Shown piece after piece: positions 2,907 through 32,228 of a stretch of DNA of 64,000 bases (position 1 is its first letter; every line of letters starts with the position of its first letter). Source of the DNA: an uncultured Pseudomonadota bacterium (GTDB lineage Bacteria; Myxococcota_A; Polyangia; Fen-1088); assembly GCA_963847705.1 (NCBI GenBank), contig CAWKBC010000032.1, positions 256,001 through 320,000 on the forward strand, written 5' to 3'. The position numbers and the translations under genes were made by a program. The notes beneath the pieces are model-generated. The model saw only the letters and a program-made list of their open reading frames with translations, ran no database searches and was not told the origin of the DNA.

Positions 2907-9242
<6,336 letters not shown>

Positions 9243-9434
9243 GATCACTCGCCCCCAAGGTCTGGGAAACGGTGAGCGTAGCATTGACCGCCTGCTGATC
9301 ACTCCTCAAGAAAAACGTCAAGCGTGTTGTACAAAACCGCGACGAAATTCTTGGCAAGCGCCTCTTGCGCTTTCACGAGAAGGCCGAACGAAGCAAAAGG
9401 CGGTGGACGACCGCCGAACTGCCCCTAAAGCAGG

Positions 9435-12630: not shown

Positions 12631-13131
12631 TCAGCCAGCCGCGCGGGTGGGCGCCATCGGGCCCAGCCAGGCCCGGGCGCGCCAGCGCCGGAGCGAGCGG
12701 CGAAGCTCGAACGCGGCGACCACGGCCAGGCGACCGAGAAGCCCCGCCGTCACTTCGAGGTCGACGCGCCGGCCGGCGCGCTCCACGGCGATCACGCGGC
12801 CACGAACCTCGGCGGCGGTCACGGGGCGGTCGATCTCCAGCGCCGCGTCTCCGCACAAGGTCAGGCGGGGAGCACGGGATGCGTCTTTTTGGATGGAGAG
12901 AACTCGATGCGCCACCGACCGCGATCCCGTCTGGCACAAAACCACGTCGGCGACATCGACGTCAGCGGCGGCGACCGGGGCGACGATCAGAACCTCGCTG
13001 TCCTCGATCGTCGGCGTCATGCTGCGCCCTCCGGCGCGGAATCGAACGCCGATCCCTTCAGCGAGCAACCCTTCGACGACGGATGCGAAGGCCCCTCGAT
13101 GCAGAGCGCTGTGGCCGTGACTCGATCTCAC
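12631..13131 (-). CDS. S24/S26 signal-peptidase-like protein (Ser-His type), RiPP-cassette associated
   Basis: FRAGGRSMTPTI (catalytic Ser) and VAHRV (His). Confidence 0.8.
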   Translation of the reverse strand: MRSSHGHSALHRGAFASVVEGLLAEGIGVRFRAGGRSMTPTIEDSEVLIVAPVAAADVDVADVVLCQTGSRSVAHRVLSIQKDASRAPRLTLCGDAALEIDRPVTAAEVRGRVIAVERAGRRVDLEVTAGLLGRLAVVAAFELRRSLRRWRARAWLGPMAPTRAAG

Positions 13132-13261
13132 GCCTCAACACATCGGAGTTTCCGTCGAGAAAATGAACGATCGGCGCGCGATTCTCGCTCGTGACCGCGG
13201 CGGAGATCTGACGGACGCGGGTGTCACATTTCAGACACGCCTCGACCAGGAGTGCACGGTT

Positions 13262-13445
13262 CAGTTGGCCGCGCGCTCGGTTTGCCGCGCGCTCGGTTTG
13301 CCGCCCGGCCCGTTTGCCGCGCGCTCGGTTTGCCGCCCGGCTCAGGTTTGCGGCGCGCTCGGTTTGCCGCGCAGCCCAGTTGCCGCGCGCTCGGTTTGCC
13401 GCCCGGCCCAGTTGCGGCGCGCCCAGTCGCTGCGCGCTCAGTTGC
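13262..13445. repeat. Degenerate ~16-bp tandem repeat array (TTTGCCGCGCGCTCGG, about 11 copies)
   Basis: Directly visible; runs into the stop codon at 13438. Confidence 0.85.
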
Positions 13446-14314
13446 TGCGGACGAACGCCGGCGCGGCCGCGTCCGGAACGAAGCCGAGCTCGACCGAGCG
13501 GCAGCGGGCGGCGATGCGCTCCAGGGAGCCGAGCATGTCGTCCAGGCCGGCCGCGTCGTAGAACGGCGGAAAGCAGCAGGCGAAGAGGCGCGCGATCGAT
13601 TCGGTGGCCGCCACCGCCGTCATCTGGTTGCGGGGCGCGTGGCGCAGAAAGCAGATCCGATCGAGCGGGGCGCGCCCCTGATTCGAGATGCGCCCATCCC
13701 CATGCCAGGGTGTGCCGTACATCCAGACGACATCGCCTTCCTGGCGCAGCACGACGCGCTCGTCGCTCAGGATCTTCACGCCCGGCTCGGGGAGCCAAAG
13801 GCGGGCCATCGTCGTCTTGCCTGCGCCGGACTGGCCGGCGAACAGCGTCCCGCGGCCGTCGGCGTCGACCACGCCGCTGCCGTGGATGGCGACGCCGCGC
13901 CCCCGGGCCAGCAGGTGCACCATCACCAGCTCGTCGAGCGGATACTGCAACGGGTAGAGCGGCAGCCGCCCGGCGAAGACCTCCCGTCGCACCGAGACCT
14001 CCCCCTCGGTGAAGTCCGGGCTGAACGACGCCATCTGGTAGGGTCGCGTCCCGAGCGGCGCCGAGGTGAACACGAACTGAAGGCCCAGGCCGCCGCGGTA
14101 GAGGCGCCAGAGCCCCTTGCCCGAATCGAACAGCAGATCGCTTGCGTCGGGCTCGCGCGGGTCGCCCCAGTCGGCGCGAATCCGCACCTCGGGCCGCTCG
14201 GCGTCCGAGACGAACTTGGCGGCGGCGCCCGCGGCGGCGATCGGCAGAATCCTCCGCCCCGGACGAGAGCGCAATCTTGATTCCGGCGATGTCGAGCGCG
14301 AACGCTCCGCTCAT
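13438..14314 (-). CDS. HprK-related P-loop ATPase/kinase (ScmC-like); apparent +1 frameshift near 14248
   Basis: IHGSGVV, LFAGQSGAGKTT, ILSDERV, YGTPWHG motifs; ATG 14314 overlaps precursor stop (ATGA) but is one base out of frame with the body. Confidence 0.8.
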
Positions 14315-14493
14315 GAGCCGAACGTCATGCAGCCGCCGAGCGAGGTGCAGTCGGACTCCGCTGGTCCCGCCACCCCCATCGTCTTGCAGTTGCCGAGCAC
14401 GGCCTCTTCGGGGCGCAAGGCCACCTGCGACAGCGTCGGCTTCTCGTACGGTTTTCGTCCGGAGCCGGGCTCCGGTGGAGACTCTGGTGTCAT
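14311..14493 (-). CDS. RiPP precursor peptide (YxxP leader, three-Cys core)
   Basis: RKPYEKPTL RRE-binding leader; EEAVL then GNCKTMGVAGPAESDCTSLGGCMTFGS; AGGAG SD; directly follows the radical SAM gene. Confidence 0.85.
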   Translation of the reverse strand: MTPESPPEPGSGRKPYEKPTLSQVALRPEEAVLGNCKTMGVAGPAESDCTSLGGCMTFGS

Positions 14494-14502
14494 CCGATGC
14501 TC

Positions 14503-15786
14503 CTATGTCCCTTCCGCGGCGCCACAGGCACCGCACCCACCGCTCGAACAAGACGACGACGAAGCGGTGCTCAAGACTTTGAGTGAGCTGGCCCGCGCCA
14601 GGGGCCGCAGCGCGCCAGCGGCCGCCTGGCCCGCCTGCACGCTGTCGACCGCGCGCAGGAGGCGTTCGTGGTGGGCGCCGCCCTCGCAGAACGCGCACTC
14701 GCCATGCGCCGGCGGCGTGAAGCCGACGACGCGGGCGCGCAGGTGGGCCACCTCGCAGAAGAACTCCACCGGCGCCTCCGGATCGCCATGCTCCAACTCG
14801 CTGGTGGCCGCGCAGGCGGAGCAGAGCGAACGAATGTGGCAGTCGGTGCACTTGGTCGGGCGGGTGATGGTCTTGTCGCGCACCTTGGCCAGGAAGCCCT
14901 CCCACCCCTCCTTGAAGCTCCCCCGGCGCAGATCGAACTGGTCGCTGTGCGACAGCACGCAGATGCTCATCTTCCCTTCGGGATCGATGGCGAAGGAATT
15001 GATGCCGCCGCCGCACTGGTAGACCTTGTCGCGGGTGCCGACCACCGGGCGCGCCCGGGAGGCCAGCTCGGCCCATCCGGCGCGGCGCACCGGATCGAGG
15101 ACGTCGAGCTCGACCATCTCGGCCGGGGAGAGCCGCACCTCGAGCGGGCTGTGCGAGCAGTCGATGCGGGCGTTGATCATCCCGTCGAACTTGAACTCCA
15201 CCCCCAGCTCCTCGGCGAACTGCTGCATCTGGGGGACCTCGTGGCGGTTGATGCTCACCGCGACGGTCTTGAGCCGCAGCGGCAGGCCGCGCTCGGTGAG
15301 CAGGCGGATGCCGCGCATGCAGCGATCGAACGAGCCCGGCACGCCGGTGAGGCGCTCGTAGGTCTCGCGCGTGCGGCCGTAGAGGGTGATCTCCACGGCG
15401 AACGGGCGCCACTCGGCCAGCATGTCGGCGAGCTCCGCCGTCAGCTGCGTGCCGTTGGTGAACAGCGTCACCAGGAGGCCGCGGCGCTTGGCGTGCTGGT
15501 AGATCTCCACGAAGTCGCGGCGGGCCAGGATCTCCCCGCCGGTGAGCAGCAGCCAGAGGCAGCCGGCGTCGGCCATCTCGTCGATGATCCGGAAGACCTC
15601 GGCGGTCGACAGCTCGCTCGCGCGCGCCGCCGCGTCCCCGACCGGGAGGTTGTTGTAGCAGTGCGCGCAGGCCAGCGGGCAGCGGTGGGTGAGCTCGATG
15701 GTGCCGTTGGTGGGCAGGCGTCCGCCTCGCGCCCGCCGGTAGATCTGCGCGCTGAAGTCGCCGTAGCTCCGGAGCGCGGCGTTCAT
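14503..15786 (-). CDS. Radical SAM/SPASM peptide maturase
   Basis: CPLACAHC, LTGGE, FTNGT; SPASM cysteines YQCGGG..ICV..KCTDC..LCSAC..FFC; ATG 15786 overlaps PqqD stop. Confidence 0.93.
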   Translation of the reverse strand: MNAALRSYGDFSAQIYRRARGGRLPTNGTIELTHRCPLACAHCYNNLPVGDAAARASELSTAEVFRIIDEMADAGCLWLLLTGGEILARRDFVEIYQHAKRRGLLVTLFTNGTQLTAELADMLAEWRPFAVEITLYGRTRETYERLTGVPGSFDRCMRGIRLLTERGLPLRLKTVAVSINRHEVPQMQQFAEELGVEFKFDGMINARIDCSHSPLEVRLSPAEMVELDVLDPVRRAGWAELASRARPVVGTRDKVYQCGGGINSFAIDPEGKMSICVLSHSDQFDLRRGSFKEGWEGFLAKVRDKTITRPTKCTDCHIRSLCSACAATSELEHGDPEAPVEFFCEVAHLRARVVGFTPPAHGECAFCEGGAHHERLLRAVDSVQAGQAAAGALRPLARASSLKVLSTASSSSCSSGGCGACGAAEGT

Positions 15787-16100
15787 GGGGAGACCTCGCT
15801 GACGAGACCCTTGGCCAGCAGCAGCGCCACGAACTCCTGGACGTCGGCGGCGGCCTCGGCCTCGCTGACTTCGTACTCGCGCGACAGCGCGGCCGCCAGC
15901 GCCTGCACCGAGCTCTTCCCGTCGATCCATTTCCAGATCGAGGCGCCCACCGCGTTGAGGGTGAAGATCGACTCGAGGTCGCCGACGCCGCCGCGGACAG
16001 GAACGATGATGACGTCGTCGGCGATCGTGCGGCTGACGAAGCCTTCGGCCTTGCGAGGGAAGCGGGCAGACGAGATGCCTTCGGTGCTCAACACGTACAT
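15783..16100 (-). CDS. PqqD-family RiPP recognition element
   Basis: IFTLNAVGASIWKWIDG..LSREYEV..DVQEFVALLLAKGLV. Confidence 0.92.
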   Translation of the reverse strand: MYVLSTEGISSARFPRKAEGFVSRTIADDVIIVPVRGGVGDLESIFTLNAVGASIWKWIDGKSSVQALAAALSREYEVSEAEAAADVQEFVALLLAKGLVSEVSP

Positions 16101-16104
16101 AGTA

Positions 16105-18552
16105 TCAGCTGTCTGCCCTCGAACCTTGAGCCGCGTCAGCAAGATGGCGACGCTCGAGGCGCCTCCGACGTCGCAGCCCGGCCACCCCGCCGGAGGCCAT
16201 CAGGGCCCAGAGCACGAGCTGGCCCGGCCGCCCCCGCCCCGAAAGCTCGCATCCGCAGCCATCGCCGCTGGGAGGCAGGAGCGAGGCCGCGTCTTGGGAA
16301 CCGTCGCTGCCGCCGTGGCCGCTTGCACCGTCGCCCCGACCGGCGTCGGGCATTGTGGCGACCGACGCATCGGCGACCACCCCGGCGTCCGGCCCGGCGG
16401 CGTCGGTCCCGGCCCCGTCGGGGCCGAGGCCCGCGTCGCCCGGCGCCGGCGGCGGCGTGGGCAGGCCAAAAATTGTCGGATCGGCGAACAGGATCCAGGT
16501 CCGTTGCGCGTCGACGTCGGTGATGGCGTGCTTGGCCGCGATGGCGGCCTCGCCGAGCGAGGTGTGGGTCAAGCGCGCGACGAACGCCTGGTCGAGAACC
16601 CCCTGCTGGTCGAACGAGGTGAGCGTCGAGGAGGCCCAGACGGCGACGGCGCCGCCGGCGGGCGCCTTGGTGAGCGTCTCGGCCAGGCTCTCGGTGTACA
16701 CGTCCTGAAAAAAACCGTTCAGGCAGTTCATGCTGACGTAGATGGAGAGGGGGGCGTTGGTGAGCGCCGCGGCGTCGCTGCCCGAGAAGAGGCCATCCCA
16801 CACCGAGACCGATCCGTGGCCCATGTAGTTGACCAGGAACGGCCCGGCATCGAGCAGCGGAAGCAGGGCCGCCTCCGTCGAGCTCGGCTGGCTGAGAAAA
16901 AAATTGCTGGTCGGCATCGAGCCGGCGACCGACGCCGCGCTCGCCTGACTGTCCTCCTCGAACGAGAGGCCGGTCTCATCGGCGTCCGCGATGAAGAGCC
17001 CGCCCTGCGGCAGGTCGGCGGCGCCGCCGTAGCCCAGGATCTTCCCCACCACCGTCGACGCCTCCGAGGCCGTGCGGACCGAGAGTCGTCCGATGGCGAT
17101 GTCCTCGACGCCGTCGGCGTCCCAGTCGACGAACCAGCCATCGGAGGCGGTCTCCATCTGCTGCGTGTCGACGAGCTTGGTGGGGGCGAAGTCGAAGTCC
17201 CCCTGCCCCAGGAAGTTGCGCGGATCGAAGGAGGCGTCGCCGACCAGCAGCACGAACCGCGGCGCCGGCGTCCAGCTGCCGTGAACCGCCTGCAGAAAAT
17301 CGCGCACCGCGAAGGGCGTCTTGTCGCCGGCGCCGAACTCGTCGTACACGTCCTGCAGGTCGACCAGCTGCACCGACCAGCCCTGCTGCCGCCGCGCCGT
17401 CACCAGCGGCGCCAGCGCGTCGATGAAGAGAGCGTTCGAGAGGATCACCATCTCGCCGGCGCGCGGGTCCGTCCAGCGGGACGGCCGGCTGGCGGTGACC
17501 GACGAGGGCGCCACGACGGCGGCGCCGGTGAAGGCGTACAGCGCCGGCCAGGAGGTCTCCCCCGGTGTGTTCACCGTGACGGTGGTGCTCGACCCGGCGG
17601 TGACCACGCTGGTCACGAGCTCGATCGGGCTGGTCGGATCGGTCACGTCCATCACCCGCACGTCGGACGACGAGAACCCCGCGATGGCGATCGGCGTGGC
17701 GGGCGGCGCGGTCAGGTTGAGCGCGTTCCCGTCGGCGACGAACAGGTGCTGGTAGTCGATCTCCACGCTGGCCACCAGCGACTCGTCGGGAGAATCCCCC
17801 TCCCCGACCAGCAGAACGTCGTTGGCCCCCTCGCGCACGCTGACCGGCGAGAGCGCGCAGGTCTGGGAGTCCTGCCCGGCGAACGCGCAGACGCCGACCG
17901 GCTGGCCGTCGAGCGAGATCGCCACCTGGTGGTCTCCGGCCGTGACCCCCTGCAGGACGACCTGCAGCCCGGCCGGCTGCGCCCCGTCGAGGTGAGTGAC
18001 CGACACCGACTCGGTCACGCCGGCGGGGCCGACGACGTCGCCGAAGAAGTTGCTGGCTTCGCCGTTCTTCAGCGCCGCGAAGTAGTTGGTTCGCTGGCGC
18101 AGCACCGCGGCACCTGGAAAATCCTGGGGCGCCGCTCCGCTGGCCGGATACGCCGAGAGGGGGACGCGTTTGCCGGCCGTCCCCGGTCCGACGACCAGCC
18201 AGTAGGTGCGCGCCCCCGTCCAGAGCGTATCGCGCCCCTGGCCGTAGAACTCGATCGCCTCGCCGCTGTCGAACACCGCGTCGCCGTTGCCGGTGATCGA
18301 CAGCGCCTGTTCGACGCCGTCGGCGAAGAGCTGGAGCTGCGCCGGGTCGACCCCTGGAGCGAGCCCGGCCGCGACCAGGGCCGGCTGCGAGACGTGTTGC
18401 CACCCCGTCGAGGTCACCACCAGCTTGACGGCGGGCATCGCGGCCAGCTCCAGCTGGCTCGGCGCGCCCGGGCTGGCCGCAAATGCCGCGGGCGTCGCTG
18501 GCAGGCCGAACGCGCCGAACGCGCCGGCCACGACGAGAGACCAGCGCGCCAT
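16105..18552 (-). CDS. Peptidase C25 (gingipain-like) domain protein with signal peptide and MYXO-CTERM tail
   Basis: VYDEFG, FVLLVGDA, IAIGRL, YMGHGS (His), SMNCLNG (Cys), ILFADP; C-terminal GCGC-TM-RRRRR. Confidence 0.88.
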   Translation of the reverse strand: MARWSLVVAGAFGAFGLPATPAAFAASPGAPSQLELAAMPAVKLVVTSTGWQHVSQPALVAAGLAPGVDPAQLQLFADGVEQALSITGNGDAVFDSGEAIEFYGQGRDTLWTGARTYWLVVGPGTAGKRVPLSAYPASGAAPQDFPGAAVLRQRTNYFAALKNGEASNFFGDVVGPAGVTESVSVTHLDGAQPAGLQVVLQGVTAGDHQVAISLDGQPVGVCAFAGQDSQTCALSPVSVREGANDVLLVGEGDSPDESLVASVEIDYQHLFVADGNALNLTAPPATPIAIAGFSSSDVRVMDVTDPTSPIELVTSVVTAGSSTTVTVNTPGETSWPALYAFTGAAVVAPSSVTASRPSRWTDPRAGEMVILSNALFIDALAPLVTARRQQGWSVQLVDLQDVYDEFGAGDKTPFAVRDFLQAVHGSWTPAPRFVLLVGDASFDPRNFLGQGDFDFAPTKLVDTQQMETASDGWFVDWDADGVEDIAIGRLSVRTASEASTVVGKILGYGGAADLPQGGLFIADADETGLSFEEDSQASAASVAGSMPTSNFFLSQPSSTEAALLPLLDAGPFLVNYMGHGSVSVWDGLFSGSDAAALTNAPLSIYVSMNCLNGFFQDVYTESLAETLTKAPAGGAVAVWASSTLTSFDQQGVLDQAFVARLTHTSLGEAAIAAKHAITDVDAQRTWILFADPTIFGLPTPPPAPGDAGLGPDGAGTDAAGPDAGVVADASVATMPDAGRGDGASGHGGSDGSQDAASLLPPSGDGCGCELSGRGRPGQLVLWALMASGGVAGLRRRRRLERRHLADAAQGSRADS

Positions 18553-18649: not shown

Positions 18650-21600
18650 ATGACTCGGAGGAGAGCTCTGTTCGGCGTCTCGGGGGGAGTCCTGGCGCTC
18701 GCCATCGCCTGGCCGGCCGCCGTCCAGGCCGCCGCCTGCGCCACCACCGCCTGCGGTTCCGCCACCAGCGTGACCTACAACGGCGCGGCCTTGACCTTTG
18801 CCGGCGCTTCGACGAACGGGACGGTGCGCAGCGAGCTCTGGTACCTGGTCGCGCCGACGAGCGGCGTCCACAACGTGGTGGTCACCGCGCCCAACGCCGA
18901 CGCGGTCACCGCCACCTCGATGTCGTTCACCGGCGTCAACCAGACCACCCCCCTCGGCACCACGGTCTCGGCGATCGGCACCGGCACGACCACGTCGGTC
19001 TCCACCACCAGCGCGGTCGGCGAGCCGCTGTTCGACGTCGTCGGCGCCGTCGGAACCACCCCACCGACCGTGGCCGGCGCGACCCAGACCGTTCGCCAGA
19101 CCAACACCACCGCGACCGGCCTCGACCAGGTGGTCCTCGGCTCCAGCACCGCGCCGGGCGCGGGCGCCACGTCGATCAGCATGTCCTGGACCATCCCCAG
19201 CGCCGACTGGGCCCAGATCGCGGTCCCCATCCAGGCCTCCACCGCACTGACCGCCGTCGCGGTGAGCGCTCTGACCGCGACGTTGCAGCCCGACGGCGTG
19301 CTGGTCCAGTGGAGCGATGGCTATGAGCCGTCGTCGCTGGGATTCTACGTCTACCGCAGCGACGGTACCGGAGGCCGCGTCCGGCTGAACGCCTCGGTCA
19401 TCGCCGGCGGCGCGCTCGGCACGGGAGCGTCGTCGTTCTCCTGGAAGGACGCCTCGGCGGGCTGGGACGGCGCGGTGTCGTACTGGGTCGAAGACGTCGG
19501 CCTCGACGGCTCGATGAGCTGGTACGGTCCGGTCACCCCACGACCCGCCGGCGCCATCGACGCAACGGGCGGCGCGGCCGCGAGCTCGTCCGGCGGCGCC
19601 GCCAGCAGCTGGTCCGGCGCGGGCGGCCAGGCGCCGGCAGAATCGGCCGGGGCGGGCGGGTGCACGGTCGCCGCGCGCGATCCGCGCAGCACGCTGCTGC
19701 AGCTGGTGCTGGCGCTCGGCCTGGTCGCCGGCGTGCGGCGGCGGAAGCGGCTCGCCGCGCTGGTCGTCCTCTACGCCCTGGCGGTCGCCGCCAGCGGGCT
19801 GCTTTCGCCCCGGACCGCCGCAGGCGCGGGCGGCGTCGCCGTCGACGCGACCGCCACCGGGTCGGGCGCCAGCGGATTGACCTTCTCGCACACGATGGGC
19901 GCCGGCGCGAACGGGCTCCTGATCGTGGGGGTGGTCGTCCCGATCACCTGCGACGACACCACGACCGACGGGGCCAACTGCGGGGCCTGCGGCACGACCT
20001 GCGCGCAGGATGTCGGAGCTTCGCTCGGCACGGGTCTGCTCGGCCTGTGGCGCTTCGACGAGGGGAGCGGCACCACCTCGGCCGACTCGTCCGGCAACGG
20101 CAACACGGCCACCCTCTTCAACAGCCCGAGCTGGACCACCGGTTACTCCGGCGACGCCGTCGAGGGGAACGGCACCAGCAGCTACGTCGCGGCCAACATC
20201 GGGACCTGGTTCGGGGCGAACAACACCCTGTCGGTCTCCGCCTGGACCTACGTCAACGCCAGCTCCAGCGGCCCGGTGGTCGGGATCGCCGGGACCAACG
20301 GCTGGAACATGCCATTCCTCAGCGTCAACGGCTCGACCGTCTACGGTTGGCTGTGGGGCGTGCCCGGAACCGACCCGGCCAGCAGCCCCCTCGCGGCGAC
20401 GGTCACCCTCGACGCCTGGCACTTCCTGGCCATCACCTACGATCCGAACGGTGGTGGCGCGGGGATCGGCCAGGAGATCTTCTACGTCGACGGCATGGTC
20501 TCCAGCTCGGCCACCGGGACCTACCAGCCGTCTGGAACGAGCGACGTCTTCACCACGCAGATCGCCGGCGCAAAGCCCAACGGAGGCGCCATGGACAGCG
20601 TCCTGCTCGGCAAGGTCGACGAGGTGCGCGCCTACAACCGGACTCTGAGCGCCGCAGACATCACCGCGCTCTACGGCGGGCGGCTCACCTGCGCGGCCAG
20701 CACCTGCGCGGCCTGCTCCGGGGGCCAGACCGCTTGCAGCGGCAGCTGTACCGACACGTCGACCGACATCGACAACTGCGGCGGCTGCGGACACGCCTGC
20801 AACATCGCCGGCGGCGAAACCTGCGTGGGGGGAACTTGCACCTGCACCACCGGCACCGACTGCAGTGGCGTCTGCTCCACCACCTCCAACGATCCCAACA
20901 ACTGCGGTGGCTGTGGCATCGCTTGCGGAATGCCGACCAGCGCCGCCATCGACAGCGGGCTCATCGGGCACTGGAACCTCGATGAGGGGTCCGGCACGAC
21001 CTCGGCCGATTCGTCGGGGAACGGCAACACGGCGACACTCTCCGGCGCGACCTGGACCACAGGCTACTCCGGCGACGCGGTCGCGGGTGACGGCAGCTCT
21101 ACCTACGTGAGCGCCAACCTGGGGAGCTATTTCGGCACCAACGCCGCCCTCACCGCCAGCGCCTGGGTCTACGCCACCGCGACCACCAACGGTCCTGTCT
21201 TCGGCGTCACCTCCATCCCGGCGGGCGGCGGCTGGAACATGCCCTTCCTCAGCATCGCCGGCTCAACCGCTTACGGATGGTTGTGGGGGGTCCCGGGGAT
21301 CGACGGCGGCTCGAGCCCGCTGGCCGCCACCGTCAGCCTCGACGCCTGGCACTTCCTGGCCATCACTTACACGCCGTCGGGAGGGTCAGGGACGGAGAGG
21401 TTCTACGTCGACGGCGCGCTGGCCGGCACCGCGACCGGCGCCTACCAGCCCTCGGGCCAGGTCGACACCTGGTCCACCACCATCCCCGGCGCCAGGCCAA
21501 GCGCCGTCACCAACAGCTTCCTCAACGGCAAGGTTGACGAGGTGCGCGCCTACAGCCGCGCGCTCAGCGCCGCCGAGATCTCGATCCTCTACAACGCCCG

Positions 21601-22657
21601 CCAGACCTGTTCGTCGTCGATCTGCGGCGGCTGCACCGGCGGCGAGTCGCTCTGTGGCGGCGATTGCACCGACAAGACCATCGACGCCAGCAACTGCGGC
21701 GCCTGCGGCACCAGCTGCAACATCTCCGGCGGTGAGAGCTGCATCTCCAGCAGCTGCGGCTGCGCCAGCGGCACCGACTGCAGCACCGTCTGCGTCGACA
21801 CCACCTCCGATCAGAACAACTGCGGCGGCTGCGGCGCCCCCTGCGGCGCTGTCACCTGCGCCTCCTGCGGCAGCGGGATGGCGGGCCTGTGGCACCTCGA
21901 CGAGGGCTCCGGGTCGACGTCGGCCGATTCATCCGGCAACAACCACACCGCCACGCTCAACAGCAGCCCCGGCTGGGTGACGGGCGAGGCGGGCAACGGG
22001 CTGGCGTTCAACGGCACCAGCTACATGACGGCCACGCTGGGAAGCTGGTTCGGCAACAACAACCCCCTCTCCGCCAGCGCCTGGGTCTTCGCCACCTCCA
22101 CCACGAACGGGCCGATCTTCGGCGTCACCGACACCCTGCCGGGGACGAACTGGAACATGCCTTTCCTGAGCATTGCCGGGTCGACCGTCTACGGCTGGCT
22201 CTGGTCGATGGCCAACAACAATCCCCTGTCGGCGACGGTCTCGCTGAACGCCTGGCACCTCCTCACGATCACCTACGATCCGAACGGAGGCGCCGCCGGC
22301 ACCGGCCAGGAGATCTTCTACGTCGACGGCGCGGTGTCGCAGTCCTCGGACATCACCTACTGGCCCTCGGGCAACAGCGACTTCCTCACCACGCAGATCC
22401 AAAACGCCAAGCCGAGCGGCGTGAACAACATTCTGACCGGCACCATCGACGAGCTCCGCGCCTATACCCGCGTCCTCTCGGCGGGTGAGATCGCGCTGCT
22501 CTACAACGCGCGTCAGACCTGCGTGGGCTCCGTCTGCACCGGCTGTCCGACGGGGACCACCAGCTGCGGCGGCGGCGTCTGCCAGAACACCGCCTGCGGT
22601 GCCTGCGGAAGTCCCTGCTCGGGCACCCAGCAGTGCGTCTCCGGCACCTGCATGTAG
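18650..22657 (+). CDS. Large surface protein: beta-sandwich domains, internal MYXO-CTERM-like hairpin, three LamG domains, NCGxCG Cys-rich repeats
   Basis: Signal peptide; three GxWxxDEGSG..WHFLAITY..FYVDG..DEVRAY LamG repeats; NCGxCG repeats between them. Confidence 0.85.
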   Translation: MTRRRALFGVSGGVLALAIAWPAAVQAAACATTACGSATSVTYNGAALTFAGASTNGTVRSELWYLVAPTSGVHNVVVTAPNADAVTATSMSFTGVNQTTPLGTTVSAIGTGTTTSVSTTSAVGEPLFDVVGAVGTTPPTVAGATQTVRQTNTTATGLDQVVLGSSTAPGAGATSISMSWTIPSADWAQIAVPIQASTALTAVAVSALTATLQPDGVLVQWSDGYEPSSLGFYVYRSDGTGGRVRLNASVIAGGALGTGASSFSWKDASAGWDGAVSYWVEDVGLDGSMSWYGPVTPRPAGAIDATGGAAASSSGGAASSWSGAGGQAPAESAGAGGCTVAARDPRSTLLQLVLALGLVAGVRRRKRLAALVVLYALAVAASGLLSPRTAAGAGGVAVDATATGSGASGLTFSHTMGAGANGLLIVGVVVPITCDDTTTDGANCGACGTTCAQDVGASLGTGLLGLWRFDEGSGTTSADSSGNGNTATLFNSPSWTTGYSGDAVEGNGTSSYVAANIGTWFGANNTLSVSAWTYVNASSSGPVVGIAGTNGWNMPFLSVNGSTVYGWLWGVPGTDPASSPLAATVTLDAWHFLAITYDPNGGGAGIGQEIFYVDGMVSSSATGTYQPSGTSDVFTTQIAGAKPNGGAMDSVLLGKVDEVRAYNRTLSAADITALYGGRLTCAASTCAACSGGQTACSGSCTDTSTDIDNCGGCGHACNIAGGETCVGGTCTCTTGTDCSGVCSTTSNDPNNCGGCGIACGMPTSAAIDSGLIGHWNLDEGSGTTSADSSGNGNTATLSGATWTTGYSGDAVAGDGSSTYVSANLGSYFGTNAALTASAWVYATATTNGPVFGVTSIPAGGGWNMPFLSIAGSTAYGWLWGVPGIDGGSSPLAATVSLDAWHFLAITYTPSGGSGTERFYVDGALAGTATGAYQPSGQVDTWSTTIPGARPSAVTNSFLNGKVDEVRAYSRALSAAEISILYNARQTCSSSICGGCTGGESLCGGDCTDKTIDASNCGACGTSCNISGGESCISSSCGCASGTDCSTVCVDTTSDQNNCGGCGAPCGAVTCASCGSGMAGLWHLDEGSGSTSADSSGNNHTATLNSSPGWVTGEAGNGLAFNGTSYMTATLGSWFGNNNPLSASAWVFATSTTNGPIFGVTDTLPGTNWNMPFLSIAGSTVYGWLWSMANNNPLSATVSLNAWHLLTITYDPNGGAAGTGQEIFYVDGAVSQSSDITYWPSGNSDFLTTQIQNAKPSGVNNILTGTIDELRAYTRVLSAGEIALLYNARQTCVGSVCTGCPTGTTSCGGGVCQNTACGACGSPCSGTQQCVSGTCM

Positions 22658-22697: not shown

Positions 22698-25379
22698 ATG
22701 AGTCTGCAACAGATGCGCACCAATCTCAGGCTCACCAAAGGTCTCGCCTTGCTGGCGATGAGTGGCATGTTCCTGGTTGCCTGCGGCGACGCGTCCCCCG
22801 GAAGCTCGGGCGGCGCCGCCGGCGCCGGCGGTGCCCAGACAGGCGGCGCGGGTGGGTCAGGGACCGGCGGCACGACCGGGACGGGTGGGCTGGCCGGCGG
22901 CTCGGGAGGCGGCAGCGTCGGGACGGGCGGCGGCGGCGGCACGGGCGGGGGCGGCGGCGGCGGCACGGGCGGCGGCGTCGGCACGGGCGGCGGCGTCGGG
23001 TCGGGCGGCGGCGTCGGCACGGGCGGCGTGAGCGGTGCGGCCGGCAGCCAGGCGACCGGCGGCAGCGGCGGCGCGGCCGGGGGCGCGACGGGCGGAGGCA
23101 GCGGTGCTGGCGGTTCGGCGATGGCCGGCGCAGGCGGCGGAACCACGGACGCGGGGGCGGTCGACACCGGAATCGACGTCCCGCCCCCTCCCCCGGCGCC
23201 AGCGACGACCATTCCCACCACCCCGATCGACTTCGGAGCGATCGACTGCGGCGCGGCCGGCGGAACGCTTCCCTTCTCCTTCACCAACACGGGAACCGCC
23301 AGTCTCCATTACCGCGCCGCCATCGATCTGGGCGGCACCTTCTCGCTGCAGGGGGCCGCGGCCGACGGCTCCCTCACCGGCGACGTTGCCCCCGGCTCGA
23401 CCGCACAGCTGACGATCGTGGCCGGGATCATCCCGACGACCAGCGCCGTCGGCGCCGTCCTCACCGGAGCGTTGACGGTGGCGACCAACGCCGCCGGTGC
23501 CGACAACACGCAGATCGCCATCGCCATGACCGCCCAGGGAAGCACCTGCACGCTCACCTGTGGCGCGTTCACCAAGTGTACGCCCAGCAGCGCCTCTCCC
23601 TATTGCGCCAACACGGAGACCGACAACATCAACTGCGGCGCCTGCGGTCACACCTGCGGCACCGGTGAGGTCTGCACCAACGGCAGCTGCGAGCTCACCT
23701 GTGGCGCGCTCACCAAGTGCTCACCGTCGTCCGGCAGCGATTACTGCGCCAACACCACCACCGACAGCAACAACTGCGGTGCCTGCGGCAACGTCTGTGG
23801 CACGGGGCAAGTCTGCAGCGGCGGCGTCTGCACCCTCTCTTGCGGCGCGCTCACCAAGTGCTCGCCGTCGACGGGCGCCCCCTATTGCGCCAACACGCTG
23901 ACCGACAACGCCAACTGCGGCACCTGCGGCAACCCCTGCACCGGCGCCGACGTCTGCTCGAACGGCGTCTGTACGCTCACCTGCGGCGCGCTCACCACCT
24001 GCGCTCCCACCAGCGGCGCCCCCTACTGCGCCAACACGCTGACCGACAACGCCAACTGCGGCACCTGCGGCAATCCCTGCACCGGCGCCGACGTCTGCAC
24101 CAACGGCGTCTGCACCATCGCCTGCGGCGCGCTCTCGACCTGCACGCCGTCGAGCAGCGCCCCCTACTGCGCCAACTTCGCCACCGACAACGCCAACTGC
24201 GGCAGCTGCGGCAACGTCTGCGGCGCCGGCCAGGTCTGCAGCGGCGGCGGCTGCACGCTCACCTGCGGCGCGCTCTCGAAGTGCACCCCCACGAGCGGCA
24301 CCCCCTACTGCGCCAACTTCGCCACCGATACCGCCAACTGCGGCAGCTGCGGCAACGTCTGCGGCGCCGGCCAATCCTGCATGGGCGGCGTCTGCCAGGC
24401 CAACTGCTCGGGGAGCGAGACGGCCTGCGGCGGGTTGTGCACCAACACCTCGTTCGATCCGAGCAACTGCGGCGCCTGCGGCAACGGCTGTGCGTTCGCG
24501 CAGGGCTCCGCGGCCTGCGCCGGTGGGGGGTGCTTCCTCACCGCCTGCAACGCCGGCTACGCCGACTGCAACCACGCCCAGTCGGACGGCTGCGAGACCA
24601 ACACCGACAGCGACGCCGCCAACTGCGGCGCCTGCGGCAAGTCCTGCGCGCTCGGGGAGACCTGCGTCTCGGCCGTCTGCACCGCCAACCTCTCGCAAGG
24701 GCTCATCGGCTACTGGAAGATGGACGACGCCCCGGGCTCGACCAAGGCCGCCGACAGCGGCCCCAACAACCTCCCCGGGTTCGTCCAGGGGAACGTCACC
24801 TTCCTTCCCACGGCCGGCAAGCAAGGCTCGGGCGCGATCTCCCTGGCGGGCAGCGGCTACATCCGCGTCCCCTTCCCCAACAACGCCATCAACCAAGGGA
24901 CCGGCATCGCCATCCCGCAGGGAAACATGACCTTCTCGATGTGGTTCAAGACCAACACCACGGGCCCGGGCGGCTTGCAGGTCGTGGAGGGGAACGCAGC
25001 CTGGGGCTCGGGCTACGATCGCGTGGTGGGCAGCGGAACCGGCTCGACGTTGCAGTACAACGCTTGGCACGAGGTCAACATGACAGGGGTCGTGACCGTC
25101 AACGACGGCAACTGGCACCTCATGACCTACGTCCTCGACGAGTCGAACGGCTTCCTGACCTATATCGACGGCAGCCCCGACGCCAGCTCTTCGACGCTGA
25201 CCGACAATTGCGGCGAAGGGTGCAGCGGCTTCAACTGGGCCGCGGAGTACTGGATCGGCACCGGTGCCGACGGCCGTTTCAGCGCCGGCAACTTCAGTGG
25301 CCTCATCGACGACGTGCGCATGTACAACCACGTCCTTTCGCCGGCCGCGGTGATGCAGCTCTACAACGCCACCAAGTAG
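22698..25379 (+). CDS. Lipoprotein with Gly-rich linker, Ig-like domain, six 47-aa Cys-rich repeats and C-terminal LamG
   Basis: LVAC lipobox; FTNTG Ig-like motif; GYWKMDD..WHLMTY..IDDVRMYN LamG. Confidence 0.85.
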   Translation: MSLQQMRTNLRLTKGLALLAMSGMFLVACGDASPGSSGGAAGAGGAQTGGAGGSGTGGTTGTGGLAGGSGGGSVGTGGGGGTGGGGGGGTGGGVGTGGGVGSGGGVGTGGVSGAAGSQATGGSGGAAGGATGGGSGAGGSAMAGAGGGTTDAGAVDTGIDVPPPPPAPATTIPTTPIDFGAIDCGAAGGTLPFSFTNTGTASLHYRAAIDLGGTFSLQGAAADGSLTGDVAPGSTAQLTIVAGIIPTTSAVGAVLTGALTVATNAAGADNTQIAIAMTAQGSTCTLTCGAFTKCTPSSASPYCANTETDNINCGACGHTCGTGEVCTNGSCELTCGALTKCSPSSGSDYCANTTTDSNNCGACGNVCGTGQVCSGGVCTLSCGALTKCSPSTGAPYCANTLTDNANCGTCGNPCTGADVCSNGVCTLTCGALTTCAPTSGAPYCANTLTDNANCGTCGNPCTGADVCTNGVCTIACGALSTCTPSSSAPYCANFATDNANCGSCGNVCGAGQVCSGGGCTLTCGALSKCTPTSGTPYCANFATDTANCGSCGNVCGAGQSCMGGVCQANCSGSETACGGLCTNTSFDPSNCGACGNGCAFAQGSAACAGGGCFLTACNAGYADCNHAQSDGCETNTDSDAANCGACGKSCALGETCVSAVCTANLSQGLIGYWKMDDAPGSTKAADSGPNNLPGFVQGNVTFLPTAGKQGSGAISLAGSGYIRVPFPNNAINQGTGIAIPQGNMTFSMWFKTNTTGPGGLQVVEGNAAWGSGYDRVVGSGTGSTLQYNAWHEVNMTGVVTVNDGNWHLMTYVLDESNGFLTYIDGSPDASSSTLTDNCGEGCSGFNWAAEYWIGTGADGRFSAGNFSGLIDDVRMYNHVLSPAAVMQLYNATK
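23548..24395 (+). repeat. Intragenic 141-bp tandem repeat x6 (8 Cys per unit)
   Basis: CTLTCGALTKC..PYCANT.TDNANCG.CGN.C....VC units. Confidence 0.85.
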
Positions 25380-26119: not shown

Positions 26120-26440
26120 AGCGAGAGCTCCGCGTGGCTTGGCCACGCGGAGCGGAGGGGGACCGGGCAGAGCGAGCACAGCGTGACGGACGGGGATGCG
26201 AGCGCAGCGTGGCGGACGGGAGAGCGAGCGCAGCGTGGCGGACGCGAGAGCGAGCGCAGCGTGGCGGACGCGAGAGCGAGCGCAGCGTGGCTCTGCCACG
26301 CGGAGCGAGGGGGGACCGGGGGGTGCGAGCGGCAGCGAGCCGCCCCCCGTAAAATCAAAGGGGTGCGAGCGGCAGCGAGCCGCCCCCCGTAAAATCAAAG
26401 GGGTGCGAGCGGCAGCGAGCCACCCCCCGTAAAATCAAAG
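26120..26440. repeat. Composite intergenic REP-like repeat: 26-bp unit x4-5, 40-bp hairpin unit x3, duplicated palindromic flank
   Basis: AGCGAGCGCAGCGTGGCGGACGCGAG from 26171; GGGTGCGAGCGGCAGCGAGCCGCCCCCCGTAAAATCAAAG at 26321, 26361, 26401; GCGTGGC..GCCACGC twice. Confidence 0.88.
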
Positions 26441-27072: not shown

Positions 27073-28152
27073 TCAGTGGCTCGTCGCCAGCGTGGCGACG
27101 CTGCTGCCGAGCTGCTGGATGGCGGCGGCCGGCATCGAACCGATGAGCTGGCAGAAATCGGCGCTCTGCCCGGTGCCGGGATTGGCGGCGTTGAGCGCCG
27201 CCATGAGTGGCGTGAAGTAGAGGTTCGGCGACGGGCCGATGTCGTCGAGCACGTTGAGCGGGAACCCCGTCACCGCTTTGCACTTGGCCTCGAAGTCGGT
27301 CTGGCTCTGCCCTTCGGCGGTGGCGATCGCCACCTGCACCACCTGCGACGGCGAGATGCTGGTGCCGCTCGAGAACGAGAGCCAGGTGACGCCGCCGGAG
27401 GCGTCGGTGTCGAGGAAGATGTCCGTGGGCGAGCGGCCGTTGACGTTGCAAGCGTCGCTCGGCAGCGCGCAGCGCCGGGCGACCGGCTGCAGGTAGACGA
27501 CGATGAACAGATCGCGGGGGCTGTCGAAGAAGGCGCTGCGATCGATCCCACCCTGCCCCGCCGGCAGCGCGGCCGAGTCGAGGCCCTGCCCGAAGCCGAT
27601 CAGGTTTTTCGCCTCGCAGGACTGGCCGTCGCCGTCGAAGTTCCCCGATCCGGCCAGGATCTGCAGCGCCAGCGGCAGGTCGGCGTCGTCGATGTTCGCC
27701 AGCGTCGGCGCGATGATCGGCAGCAGGCTCTGGTAGTTGCTGAGCCCCGCGTCTGCCCCCAGGAGGCCCAGCAGCGCCAGCGCAGGGGGGAGCGACTGGC
27801 TGGAGCTCGAGCCCTGGCGGCCGAGCAGCAGCCGCGGCCCGAACTCGTCACCGTAGGTCGAGATGAGCCCCATGTTCGCGATCGAGAGCCCCCGCGAGCC
27901 CAGGTAGTTCATGAAGCCGGTCATGATCCCGGCGTACTGGTTGGAGAGGTTCACCGAGGTTCGCGCGAGGTTGGCGACGAAGAGGATGCTCGCCGTCAAG
28001 GGAGGTGGCTGCGGCAGCGCGTCGGGGCGGACGGGAAACGGGACCGGGATGTAGATCTTCTTGGTCATCCCGCCGTCGGGGCTGGCGGGCGTGATGATCG
28101 TGCAACCGGCCCCCGCCAGCACCAGAATCAAGAGGAGCGATCGGGTCTTCAT
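27073..28152 (-). CDS. Lipoprotein with degenerate VWA-like fold (CglB-like)
   Basis: LAGAGC lipobox; SILFVANL, MGLIST, LFIVVYL, SADFC pattern resembles myxobacterial VWA lipoproteins; function call is tentative. Confidence 0.55.
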   Translation of the reverse strand: MKTRSLLLILVLAGAGCTIITPASPDGGMTKKIYIPVPFPVRPDALPQPPPLTASILFVANLARTSVNLSNQYAGIMTGFMNYLGSRGLSIANMGLISTYGDEFGPRLLLGRQGSSSSQSLPPALALLGLLGADAGLSNYQSLLPIIAPTLANIDDADLPLALQILAGSGNFDGDGQSCEAKNLIGFGQGLDSAALPAGQGGIDRSAFFDSPRDLFIVVYLQPVARRCALPSDACNVNGRSPTDIFLDTDASGGVTWLSFSSGTSISPSQVVQVAIATAEGQSQTDFEAKCKAVTGFPLNVLDDIGPSPNLYFTPLMAALNAANPGTGQSADFCQLIGSMPAAAIQQLGSSVATLATSH

Positions 28153-29957
28153 AGTGCCACCATCTTTCCCTTGTCCTTCGCCGTCGCGGAGCCACTGCCG
28201 GACTTTCCACTCTCGGCGTGCGACGTTTGGGGCGCCTGCAGGCCACGGGCGCGCAGCGTCTGTCGCAGCGCCGCGTAGAGCGCGCGGCGGGCCTCGGCCG
28301 TCTCGCGCGGCGTCGGCGTGACGACCAGCGAGAGATCCTCCTCCAGCGCCGCGGCCACCGTCCGTGGCAGCGTGGAGAGCGTGCGCGAGGCGACCGTCGC
28401 CGAAGCGGTGCGCAGAAAGCGCGCCAGGATCTCCGTCGGGACCCCCACCACCGTGGCCCCGAGCACCTCCTCGGAGACCAGCTCGAACGACTGCTCGGTG
28501 ATGAGCGCGGCCTCGATCGCGCGCGCCTTGACCGGATCGGCGCGCCGCATGGCGTCCAGGATCTCGGCCTGCTCGTCCATCGGCCGCTCCTCGACCAGCT
28601 CCACCGCCAGATCGATGTCGCCGGTCTGGCCCGAGTCGAGGTGGGCCTGTTCGATGGCCCGCGCCCGCAACGTGGCCGCCACGTCGAGCAGGTGCTCCTT
28701 CGAGAGCGACTTGGGAGAGGCGATGGCCGCCGCCAGCGCCGCGCGCTCGCCGGTGGAGCGCGACTCGAGATAGGTCGAACGCAGATGGGCGGGCGCGTAG
28801 CGCAGCGCCGCCGCCCGCACGCTGGGCGGCTCGGGGTCGAGCACCGCGGCCAGCCGCGCCGGCGACACGCCGAGCAGAAACGCGAACTCCTGCTCGACCG
28901 GATCGTCGGCGCCGACCATCCGGTGTTTGAGGATGCGCCGGTGCAGCTGGTCGACGATCTCGCGCGTGTCCGAGCGGGGCCGTCCGTCGACGAGCAGCGC
29001 AGCGGCCTCGCGCAACGCCGAGGCGCAGGCCGGATCGCCGCGGAGATCCTCCACCACGCCGGGGCCGATGAGCTCGACGGCGACGGCGACCTTTTCGATC
29101 TGGTTCTCGCGCAGGAGCTCCCCCATCACGCGCCGGGCCAGCACCCGATCCTCGCGCAGGGCGCGCCGCACCTCGGGGAGATGATCGACCGCCGCCGGCA
29201 GCGCGCCGGCACCGGAGGCCTCGCCGCGCCGATCGGGGGCGGTCCCCTGCTGGATGTTGCGCCGGGCGCGCCGGTCGGCGAGCGCGCTCAGCAGCGCAAA
29301 GCCGAGCGCCCCGATGAGCAGGCCCAGGACGCCGAGCGCGATGGCCACCACCCAGGGGATTCCATGCGTCCCGTTGTCGACGGCCGGCGCGGGCGGCGGC
29401 GGGGGGATCGGGTACGGCTGCGGCGCCGGCTGCTCCCGCTCACGCTGCGGCGCCGGCTGGGGCGGGGGCGGATAGGCGTAGGGAGACATCTCACGCTGTT
29501 GCGGCTGAGGCCGCGGCGTCGGAAAGGCGATCACGCTCTCGGTGATCTCGACGGGAACGTCGAGCATGTCGAGCTTGCTCTTGAGGAGGTTCTTGAGGTC
29601 CTTGCGAAACTGGGCGGGGAGCTTGGCGTCGAGCGTCACCGCCACCTCGACCCGCTCCGCCACGAACTCGGTCCCGGGCGTCAGCTCCTCGAAGCCGGGC
29701 GCCGCGCCGGCCGGCAGCGCCGTGGGGCGATTGACCCGGACGTCGACGTACTTGAGCTCGGCCTGGCCGGGCGCCATCTCCTCCAGCACCGGGGCGATGC
29801 GCCGCGTGACCTCATCGCGCACGTTCGCTTCCAGCAGCTGCGCGTCGTTGCCGAACGGTGGTCGCCGCTCCGCGCGCGCGGAGCCCGCCGCCAACAGGGT
29901 CGCCAGCGCCACCGCGGCCGCCCCCATCCCGGTTCTCATATGAATGATGCGCTTCAT
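28149..29957 (-). CDS. Membrane-anchored FliG-like rotor protein (exported domain-Pro linker-TM-FliG M and C domains)
   Basis: FAFL..SPARLAAVLDPEPPS matches FliG-M (EHPQ region); ILDAMRRADPVKARAI..LPRTVAAALEEDL..ETAEARR matches FliG-C. Confidence 0.78.
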   Translation of the reverse strand: MKRIIHMRTGMGAAAVALATLLAAGSARAERRPPFGNDAQLLEANVRDEVTRRIAPVLEEMAPGQAELKYVDVRVNRPTALPAGAAPGFEELTPGTEFVAERVEVAVTLDAKLPAQFRKDLKNLLKSKLDMLDVPVEITESVIAFPTPRPQPQQREMSPYAYPPPPQPAPQREREQPAPQPYPIPPPPPAPAVDNGTHGIPWVVAIALGVLGLLIGALGFALLSALADRRARRNIQQGTAPDRRGEASGAGALPAAVDHLPEVRRALREDRVLARRVMGELLRENQIEKVAVAVELIGPGVVEDLRGDPACASALREAAALLVDGRPRSDTREIVDQLHRRILKHRMVGADDPVEQEFAFLLGVSPARLAAVLDPEPPSVRAAALRYAPAHLRSTYLESRSTGERAALAAAIASPKSLSKEHLLDVAATLRARAIEQAHLDSGQTGDIDLAVELVEERPMDEQAEILDAMRRADPVKARAIEAALITEQSFELVSEEVLGATVVGVPTEILARFLRTASATVASRTLSTLPRTVAAALEEDLSLVVTPTPRETAEARRALYAALRQTLRARGLQAPQTSHAESGKSGSGSATAKDKGKMVAL

Positions 29958-29971
29958 GAAACCACTCCCAG

Positions 29972-30685
29972 CTAGTGGACCCTAATCACGACCCTGCGAT
30001 TTTCGCTGCGGGCGCGCGTCTGCGCGGAGGCATCGCCCTGCACGGGCGTGGCCGGCCGCGTGTCGGCGTATCCCTGGGCGGAGAGTCGCTGCGGACTGAC
30101 CCCCGCCGCGGTGAAGGACTTGAGCACGTTGATCGCCCGCGCCGAGGAGAGCTCCCAGTTCGAGTCGAACCGGCCCGTGTGGATCGGGACATCGTCGGTG
30201 TGCCCCTCGATGGCGATCTGGTAGCGGTTGTCGATGGTGGGGAGCAGCTTCCCCACCCGATCGATCGCCGCGCGCCCGGTCGGCGTGATGTCGGCCTGGC
30301 CGCTGTCGAACAGCAGCGCATTCTTCAGCTCCATGCGCAGCCCCTCGTCGTCGACGACGGTCTTCACCTGCTGGGTCAGCCCCTGCGCCGCGATCACCGC
30401 GTCGATCTTCTCCTTCAGCACGTCGAGCGAGGGCGGCGGTGCCTGATGCGAGATCGCCGCGGAGACCATCTCGAACTTGCGCAGGTTCACCTTCGACATG
30501 GCCAGCGCCAGGATCAGAAACGCCAGCAACAGGCTGACCACGTCGACGTAGGGGATGAGCCAGGAGGTGTCGTCCTCCTCGCCGTAGGCCAGCAGATCGC
30601 TGGCATCGGGGCCCCGGCTGGGGCTGGCCTTGGCGGAGCGCTTGGCGCCGCCGCCGGGCCCGCCGCCGGTCTCGAGGCCGATCAC
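29972..30685 (-). CDS. motB: MotB-family stator protein (TM plug plus OmpA peptidoglycan-binding domain)
   Basis: WLIPYVDVVSLLLAF with conserved Asp; LLFDSG, IEGHTDD, NWELSSARA, GYADTRP, NRRV; GTG overlaps motA stop. Confidence 0.9.
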   Translation of the reverse strand: MIGLETGGGPGGGAKRSAKASPSRGPDASDLLAYGEEDDTSWLIPYVDVVSLLLAFLILALAMSKVNLRKFEMVSAAISHQAPPPSLDVLKEKIDAVIAAQGLTQQVKTVVDDEGLRMELKNALLFDSGQADITPTGRAAIDRVGKLLPTIDNRYQIAIEGHTDDVPIHTGRFDSNWELSSARAINVLKSFTAAGVSPQRLSAQGYADTRPATPVQGDASAQTRARSENRRVVIRVH

Positions 30686-31443: not shown

Positions 31444-31452
31444 CTTCCCTTT

Positions 31453-32223: not shown

Positions 32224-32228
32224 GGATT

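Follow-up and report, generated by a model that had tools for sequence, protein, structure and literature searches.

The window examined here, a 64,000-nucleotide stretch from an uncultured bacterium placed in the Polyangia, carries an uninterrupted open reading frame (ORF; P0001) on contig C32 of a 6.1 Mb metagenome-assembled genome (MAG). In its predicted product, a sorting tag resembling MYXO-CTERM and a second signal peptide stand side by side in mid-protein, between two parts of one domain in reversed order. From the N-terminus the parts run: signal peptide, Cys1-2, D2, CTD, linker, MYXO-CTERM-like helix, second signal peptide, D1, Cys3-6 and three LamG domains. D1 and D2 are parts of an unnamed double beta-sandwich domain, here called D, and are delimited by their order in homologues and by models; CTD is our label for a fibronectin type III (FnIII)-like domain. 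Pfam and NCBIfam name only the tip, with its three LamG domains and Cys-rich repeats, and a scan for promoters and terminators found nothing. The parts of the precursor are the following:

18650..22657, + strand: whole precursor ORF, 1335 aa, from the ATG at 18650 to the stop at 22657
18650..18730, + strand: signal peptide 1, residue 27 being the last before the predicted cut
18731..18763, + strand: Cys1-Cys2 (C30, C35), first half of a six-Cys Stig1/MXAN_6577-like module
18764..19234, + strand: D2, the C-terminal ~80% of domain D
19241..19537, + strand: CTD, with a T-x-V motif at 19250-19258
19538..19654, + strand: Gly/Ala/Ser/Pro low-complexity linker of variable length, with a predicted local distance difference test score (pLDDT) below 50
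19655..19747, + strand: internal MYXO-CTERM-like signal (GGC, helix, basic loop) with Cys338
19736..19825, + strand: second signal peptide, with the predicted site of signal peptidase I at 19825/19826
19826..19939, + strand: D1, the first three strands of domain D (FSHT..LLIVGV)
19940..20005, + strand: Cys3-Cys6 (C434, C444, C447, C451), second half of the six-Cys module
20030..22657, + strand: tip, three LamG (PF13385) domains with intact six-Cys modules between them (Pfam/NCBIfam matches)

An earlier sequence-only reading had noted the tag followed at once by a second hydrophobic segment in one stop-free frame, with D1 after this hairpin and D2, beginning SVTYNG, on the side of the mature N-terminus; these placements were borne out at the positions given above. 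A homologue search with the first 460 residues against proteins of 806-2300 aa returned 58 matches, of which 45 are family members with 46-93% identity; 43 cover at least 86% of the query. This protein and the 45 homologues constitute the 46 family rows referred to below. The tag, the second signal peptide, D1 and the Cys residues occur in one frame in all 46 rows, with no stop interrupting this order. At signal peptide 1, residue -1 is A/G in 40/40 and residue -3 is V/A in 38/40 of the rows that include the N-terminus, and no lipobox pattern was found in this signal in the family rows.

Domain D usually occurs in the opposite order. Of 203 D2 matches outside the family, 169 have a D1 match no more than 45 residues ahead of D2 (gap 7-22 residues, mode 10), versus 0/50 with D1 directly before D2 inside the family; the contiguity of the two segments in other proteins, which the sequence-only reading had stated, is thereby confirmed. 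Most of the 26 listed D2 matches that have no D1 match show D1-like strands by eye or a truncated start. The two parts thus correspond by homology to neighbouring portions of a single domain and stand in reversed order, as expected of a circular permutant. A profile of the rearranged part retrieved 15,384 representatives at E 0.001 (the best 150 of 15,384 were examined), and D is a widespread, unnamed domain. It corresponds to no Pfam or NCBIfam family and has no Foldseek match at E 0.001; a VIA search with each half reached at best Z 7.3, a background level, to jelly-roll-like sandwiches. The model of an intact D consists of two beta-sandwiches predicted with high confidence, and no solved structure emerged as a clear relative. 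Neighbours of D in the ESM Atlas fall into unnamed clusters, many from phages; the Atlas rows for P0069 likewise indicate that intact D is common in phage proteins, and in one D-like cluster 75% of the members carry IPTL-CTERM. In a quick, unrooted tree built from a third of the D-only rows and 23 selected family rows, the 23 permuted D2 rows and one truncated family member form one branch (SH-like approximate likelihood-ratio test, SH-aLRT, 99), in line with a single origin.

The six-Cys module and domain D are split at the same two points, reciprocally. Cys1-2 are present in 41/46 rows, the remaining five being truncated, and their flanking profile agrees with that of the opening half in 182 intact modules. 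The base contains exactly two Cys in 39/41 rows, exactly four follow D1 in 41/41, and Cys3-6 were found in all 46; the Cys3-Cys4 distance is nine residues in 43/46 rows, as in 182/182 intact modules. The 2 + 4 Cys across the split therefore match intact modules in number and spacing, while whole-protein scores fall just below the cut-offs (NF041328, 96.1 of 100; PF04885, 21 of 24.1). Eighteen of the 19 Cys3-bearing modules of the genome have Cys1-2 in cis, just upstream; the exception is this module. Among the genome's modules, the loop between Cys2 and Cys3 is anywhere from 3 to 8 residues long, so insertions are tolerated there, and the reciprocal split indicates that the permuted D unit occupies the Cys2-Cys3 loop of the opening module of a LamG protein. 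Disulfides between Cys1-2 of the base and Cys3-6 of the tip are likely, judging from this arrangement. The reciprocal split and the link to a neighbouring C25 protease described below go beyond the sequence-only reading.

The hairpin shows the features of a sorting tag and of a signal peptide. As the TIGR03901 motif demands, a tag Cys (45/46 rows) and four to six basic residues in the loop (46/46) are present, and almost no acidic residues lie between the two helices. Both helices are as hydrophobic as the genome's terminal tags; the mean best 15-residue hydropathy of the tag is 2.15 versus 2.06 (n=26). The tag is not C-terminal, as TIGR03901 expects, for ~970 residues follow it, and its JDVT-CTERM score is 16.9 of 27. 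The same single-Cys tag terminates other CTD proteins, such as P0134 and the protein at G000:C47 (terminal tag, 13.3 bits), so a low tag score is a property of the subtype. The second signal has the Sec/signal peptidase I pattern of a basic n-region, a hydrophobic h-region and small residues at -3 and -1. Small residues at -3/-1, a free -2 and Pro at -6 are typical of signal peptidase I sites; here -3 is A/V/S and -1 is A/G in 46/46, -2 varies among 11 residue types and Pro occupies -6 in 31/46. After the predicted cut, Gly-Gly follows at +2/+3 in 43-44 of the 46 rows, and three rows are without it. The genome also encodes a myxosortase core (NF040914, 146.6 bits; cut-off 100) and GspD (452.8 bits; cut-off 351). 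Cleavage by the myxosortase MrtX is Cys-dependent (Guo, Haft, Wall 2025, PMC11980579), and that paper proposes lipidation and type II export of MYXO-CTERM proteins.

The arrangement is kept in diverged sequences: the lowest pairwise identity among 41 near-complete rows is 41%. Thirteen of 401 genomes of the class carry a full, stop-free 431-position match, in 14 copies; nine belong to the bacterium's own genus, three to a second genus and one to another family. These carriers overlap with the family loci, and related genomes are not independent. In two further genomes of the class the match is interrupted by contig ends, and in the long-contig relative L002 the rearranged part is intact while the frame is lost inside LamG1. 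The ratio of nonsynonymous to synonymous substitution rates (dN/dS) was 0.09-0.40 across eight segments in six close sequences (tag 0.16, second signal 0.29, D1 0.09), and 0.16-0.74 over 13 sequences. Among 17 matches of 201-643 aa and 74 matches of 734-2337 aa, no gene ending at the tag, stand-alone tip or 'restored' LamG gene was found; the short family rows among the 17 are truncated or out of frame. In P0032 (L009, 7800-10772), and likewise in L078 and L079 of genome G266, the shared base and half-module carry another tip that has no LamG. The tip is thus exchangeable between proteins that share the base.

Structure prediction points to the association of the two parts. The check on the N-terminal region proposed in the sequence-only reading was run with AlphaFold, and in the model of the uncut precursor D1 (model residues 371-400) is folded confidently, with pLDDT 85-90. 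When residues 28-297 and 394-459 were modelled as two chains, the score was 0.91, against 0.04 for the best of three controls; this mark is reached by 116/157 solved complexes and by 2/215 mismatched pairs. The runs agree in at least 85% of contacts, with a partner pLDDT of at least 68. The predicted interface takes in residues at Cys2 and Cys3 and the end of D2 (model residues 165-170). These models support binding of the base and tip chains to each other. The circular permutation across a membrane hairpin put forward in the earlier reading is therefore supported by the order in homologues, the confidence of D1 and the complex prediction. CTD matched 3mpc_B (Z 9.9, root-mean-square deviation 2.8, 91 aligned), which indicates an FnIII-like fold; matches to FnIII-like domains filled the fold search with the precursor model, and no pilin stood out in the fold searches.

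Upstream, a set of genes lies on the opposite strand. The nearest, a C25 peptidase gene, starts 97 bases from the precursor ORF:

16105..18552, - strand: divergent peptidase of the C25 type (gingipain/PorU-like) that itself ends in a MYXO-CTERM (PF01364, E 5e-63; tag TIGR03901 20.2 bits)
15783..16094, - strand: PqqD-family chaperone, part of a co-travelling cassette
14503..15786, - strand: radical SAM/SPASM enzyme, part of the same cassette
14311..14493, - strand: 60-aa, Cys-containing putative precursor of a ribosomally synthesized and post-translationally modified peptide (RiPP), 66-97% identical in nine loci; no Pfam or NCBIfam family match
13438..14274, - strand: HprK-related kinase-like protein, weak NCBIfam matches below cut-off
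12631..13131, - strand: S24/S26-like peptidase, homologous to a domain fused ahead of intact D in relatives

The peptidase combines the PF01364 match with an intact His579-Cys610 dyad, which places it in C25; its score on the PorU model NF033707 is 158.7 of 420. A divergent C25 gene is adjacent in 14/15 base-carrying genomes, and of 11 family loci nine have the full cassette, one has C25 alone and one has neither. The RiPP-like cassette, which runs from the PqqD gene to the S24/S26-like gene (12631-16094, - strand), accompanies the C25 gene in both gene types. Many relatives are fusions of signal peptide, D, CTD and C25, in which CTD stands just before the fused C25; two of them, P0113 and P0118, terminate in a MYXO-CTERM tag. 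In P0055, P0057 and P0059, which are also polyproteins with an internal signal, an N-terminal S24/S26-like domain is followed by an internal signal-like helix and then intact D. The T-x-V motif of CTD is conserved, with T201 in 44/44 and V/L/I203 in 44/44 family rows, and it heads 47/65 CTDs of relatives versus 13% of random windows. CTD has no PF18962 match, and a search for the type IX secretion (T9SS) protein SprA gave no match in this genome or in any control genome.

Our preferred interpretation, to which we give a probability of about 0.68, is that a permuted D and a split Cys module surround a membrane hairpin, and that the product is cut into two chains that refold as one surface protein. 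Sec would export the chain, with helix 1 stopping transfer and helix 2 restarting it, so both arms would be periplasmic and tethered close together. The three strands of D1 would then complete D by strand complementation, and Cys1-2 would join Cys3-6. Judging from the motifs, the cuts would yield an anchored base and a tip with the LamG domains: signal peptidase I would cut after residue 392 and myxosortase after a lipidated Cys338. This would leave a base of Cys1-2, D2, CTD and lipid, and a tip of D1, Cys3-6 and three LamG domains. Type II secretion would bring the folded pair to the surface, where the base would be the tip's sole attachment. CTD is probably recognised by the neighbouring C25 peptidase, which may clip at T-x-V and thereby shed or re-anchor the pair; this is the least certain step.

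Several observations weigh against this interpretation. The internal tag scores 14.9 bits on TIGR03901, below the curated cut-off of 20, and has a single Cys where two are usual; in P0017 even this Cys is replaced by Ser. Helix 1 contains a polar residue (Q/R/E) in 45/46 rows, which could mean a stable, packed hairpin. Over all 13 sequences, dN/dS rises to 0.48-0.74 for the tag, the second signal and Cys3-6. Halves of a domain tend to pass the complex test through likeness to intact relatives that abound in databases, and the disulfides depend on the connectivity of a six-Cys module that has no solved relative. The neighbouring C25 is without the PorU sortase Arg, which lies ~32 residues after the Cys (PMC4560394), and both copies in G266 (L078 and L079), a genome of another family, are without an adjacent C25.

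The main rival reading is that the hairpin is kept or cut only once, leaving an inner-membrane protein, or a base held on its helix, whose D and Cys module fold from periplasmic arms. The sub-threshold tag, the short, tight loop, the conserved polar residue and Gly in helix 1, the homologue without the tag Cys and the confident folding of D1 in the uncut model would all fit. However, a tag Cys in 45/46 rows together with a signal peptidase pattern in 46/46 with a free -2 is hard to explain without processing, and the low tag score is a trait of the subtype, shared with terminal tags of CTD proteins; we regard this reading as unlikely. A more elaborate possibility is ligation by C25: after a cut at T-x-V, the end of D2 would be joined to the Ala/Thr-Gly-Gly N-terminus of the tip, giving in cis a re-ordered single chain and in trans a polymer of D domains with LamG branches. 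PorU, which also belongs to C25, cleaves off a C-terminal Ig-like domain and passes the cargo on to amines, in many cases Gly peptides (PMC4560394); the Gly-Gly at +2/+3, the T-x-V at the head of most relatives' CTDs and the location of the D2 end within the predicted tip interface would suit such a reaction. Yet the PorU Arg is missing, three rows are without Gly-Gly, T-x-V may be structural, the G266 copies have no adjacent C25, and the contact list does not specify which residues of the tip lie against the D2 end. Since the enzyme has the dyad and is without the Arg, transpeptidation is possible, not supported, and we consider ligation improbable. The same low estimate applies to membrane-templated protein splicing, in which signal peptidase and myxosortase would excise the hairpin and C25 would ligate the D2 end to D1 at its Gly-Gly start.

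Three further explanations were rejected. One is separate translation of the tip, initiated inside the ORF ahead of the basic loop, in which case the in-frame fusion would be incidental; a GTG just ahead of RRRK would indeed yield a well-formed signal peptide. The codon is GTG or TTG in only 5/13 sequences, however, and a non-start GTA, GTC, ATC, GCG, GGA or ATT in 7/13; the remaining GTG (L011) precedes Gly. As no homologue has a stop after the tag either, such a start is very improbable. Even less credible is that the block from D2 to D1 is an excisable DNA element whose loss restores a LamG gene. Reciprocal splits do resemble the integration of a circle, but in 10 sequences the junctions share no word longer than 6-8 nt, which is background, and no repeat is left. 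The restored gene is absent among the 74 matches and 89 family genomes, and selection acts at the protein level on every segment. A recent rearrangement, which the sequence-only reading had kept as its alternative, or a misassembly, either of them without function, would be conceivable in a MAG that is 85% complete with 6% contamination. The conserved order and purifying selection refute it: 45 homologues come from many assemblies and diverge to the 41% identity noted above, the permuted D2 rows form one branch in the quick tree, and a relative's contig, which comes from another run, spans 19297-20085 without a gap, at 68 differences, although no contig from other runs covers the entire rearranged stretch. 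Its probability is practically nil.

Related rearrangements in the same genome suggest how the precursor may have arisen. A 1879-aa frame at G000:C47:94285-99921 (+ strand; L039:8286-13922) encodes a C25 peptidase, an internal MYXO-CTERM (25.7 bits), a second signal, a large passenger, CTD and a terminal tag; it is a permutation, at the level of the whole protein, of the common passenger-CTD-C25 fusion. Hairpins of this type were found in four further genomes (G059, G309, G361 and G285), and the C25/CTD order is kept in G151. A 1045-aa in-frame tandem duplicate at G000:C8:103153-106287 (- strand; L040:3154-6288) consists of one unit, a MYXO-CTERM (21.7 bits), a lipoprotein-type signal, a second unit and a terminal tag, with a weak match to metal-ion-dependent adhesion site (MIDAS) adhesins. 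It is the kind of intermediate that permutation by duplication requires. The ancestors were presumably D-CTD-C25 fusions. The precursor could have been produced by a single reciprocal crossover between a Cys-module/LamG gene and a copy of signal peptide, D, CTD and CTERM arranged head to tail, either as a circle or as a tandem fusion; one such event would explain both splits.

Other parts of the window were recorded as follows. Downstream of the precursor, ~22713-25379 (+ strand) encodes a probable lipoprotein with a Gly-rich linker, many six-Cys modules and one LamG; neighbours in L001-L003 are 87-91% identical. The intergenic region 26127-26306 holds four copies of a short repeat, spaced by 26 nt and bracketed by a 27-nt inverted repeat, and a similar repeat-rich gap near 13230-13440 is visible in ORF translations. 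A FliG-C-containing protein with an OmpA/MotB-like neighbour, resembling gliding-motility genes, lies at 27073-32317 (- strand). At 1314-9302 (- strand) lie two hybrid kinases, both named from translations; one is a large histidine kinase in which HAMP-like repeats are numerous.

In pili, type V in particular, an incomplete beta-sandwich is filled by donor-strand complementation, or strand exchange. Here, too, an incomplete sandwich is predicted to be completed by strands of another chain, and a C25 protease lies nearby; unlike in the pili, donor and acceptor come from one precursor and three strands are donated, not one. No pilin fold came up in the fold searches. The Bradyrhizobium FbcH cytochrome b-c1 precursor, and the removal of a spacer as in proinsulin, are cases in which one precursor is cut, either at an internal signal-like site or around a spacer, and the chains stay associated; unlike the present protein, they have neither reversed halves of one domain nor a sorting tag. 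A mid-protein sorting signal is shared with midcut-by-XrtH (NF033207) and other proteins (refs 45, 46 of PMC11980579), although those signals are of exosortase, archaeosortase or sortase type; NF033207 has no match on this ORF, and its single weak match in the genome lies elsewhere (11.7 bits, cut-off 45). The precursor of concanavalin A likewise has swapped halves of a beta-sandwich (bioRxiv 10.1101/2020.10.28.360099), and here also a cysteine protease could cut and re-join; in contrast, the present permutation is encoded in the gene, a membrane hairpin together with a folded domain forms the spacer, and re-ligation is hypothetical. As in PorU and T9SS (PMC4560394, PMC11969387), a C25 peptidase with a His-Cys dyad adjoins or is fused to cargo whose final domain is Ig/FnIII-like and has a short conserved motif at its head. 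Unlike in T9SS, however, CTD does not match PF18962 and is followed by a membrane tag, and the enzyme differs from PorU in its score and its missing Arg.

A close precedent is MXAN_5598, so internal sorting tags as such are already published; according to PMC11980579, it has an internal MYXO-CTERM and its N-terminal part is proposed to be processed and anchored. As in that MrtX pathway, the Cys motif, helix and basic cluster stand within an ORF, in a genome with myxosortase and GspD. MXAN_5598 is a fusion of two complete units, an adhesin and then a beta-barrel/OmpA part, whereas here the domain and the Cys module are each shared out between the products in reversed order, and neither product is complete. 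A permuted, doubly split design was not found in searches of the open-licence PMC and bioRxiv literature, Table S1 of PMC11980579 not being covered.

If this interpretation is true, myxobacterial fusions of a tag to a signal peptide would be more than read-through accidents. Since neither product could fold alone, selection would keep a precursor that has its N- and C-terminal topology rewired through the membrane, and the design would be a natural means of hanging a free-ended, exchangeable tip on an anchored base. For protein engineering, it would serve as a ready-made scheme in which a C-terminal anchor displays a protein whose own C-terminus is free. The splicing reading, if true, would amount to a bacterial post-translational re-ordering like that of concanavalin A, or, in trans, to D domains linked covalently into a filament that bears lectin branches. 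The family also provides a direct test of whether internal signals are acted on by myxosortase and signal peptidase I, and a way into the D-CTD-C25 surface systems, widespread and unnamed, that occur outside Bacteroidota.

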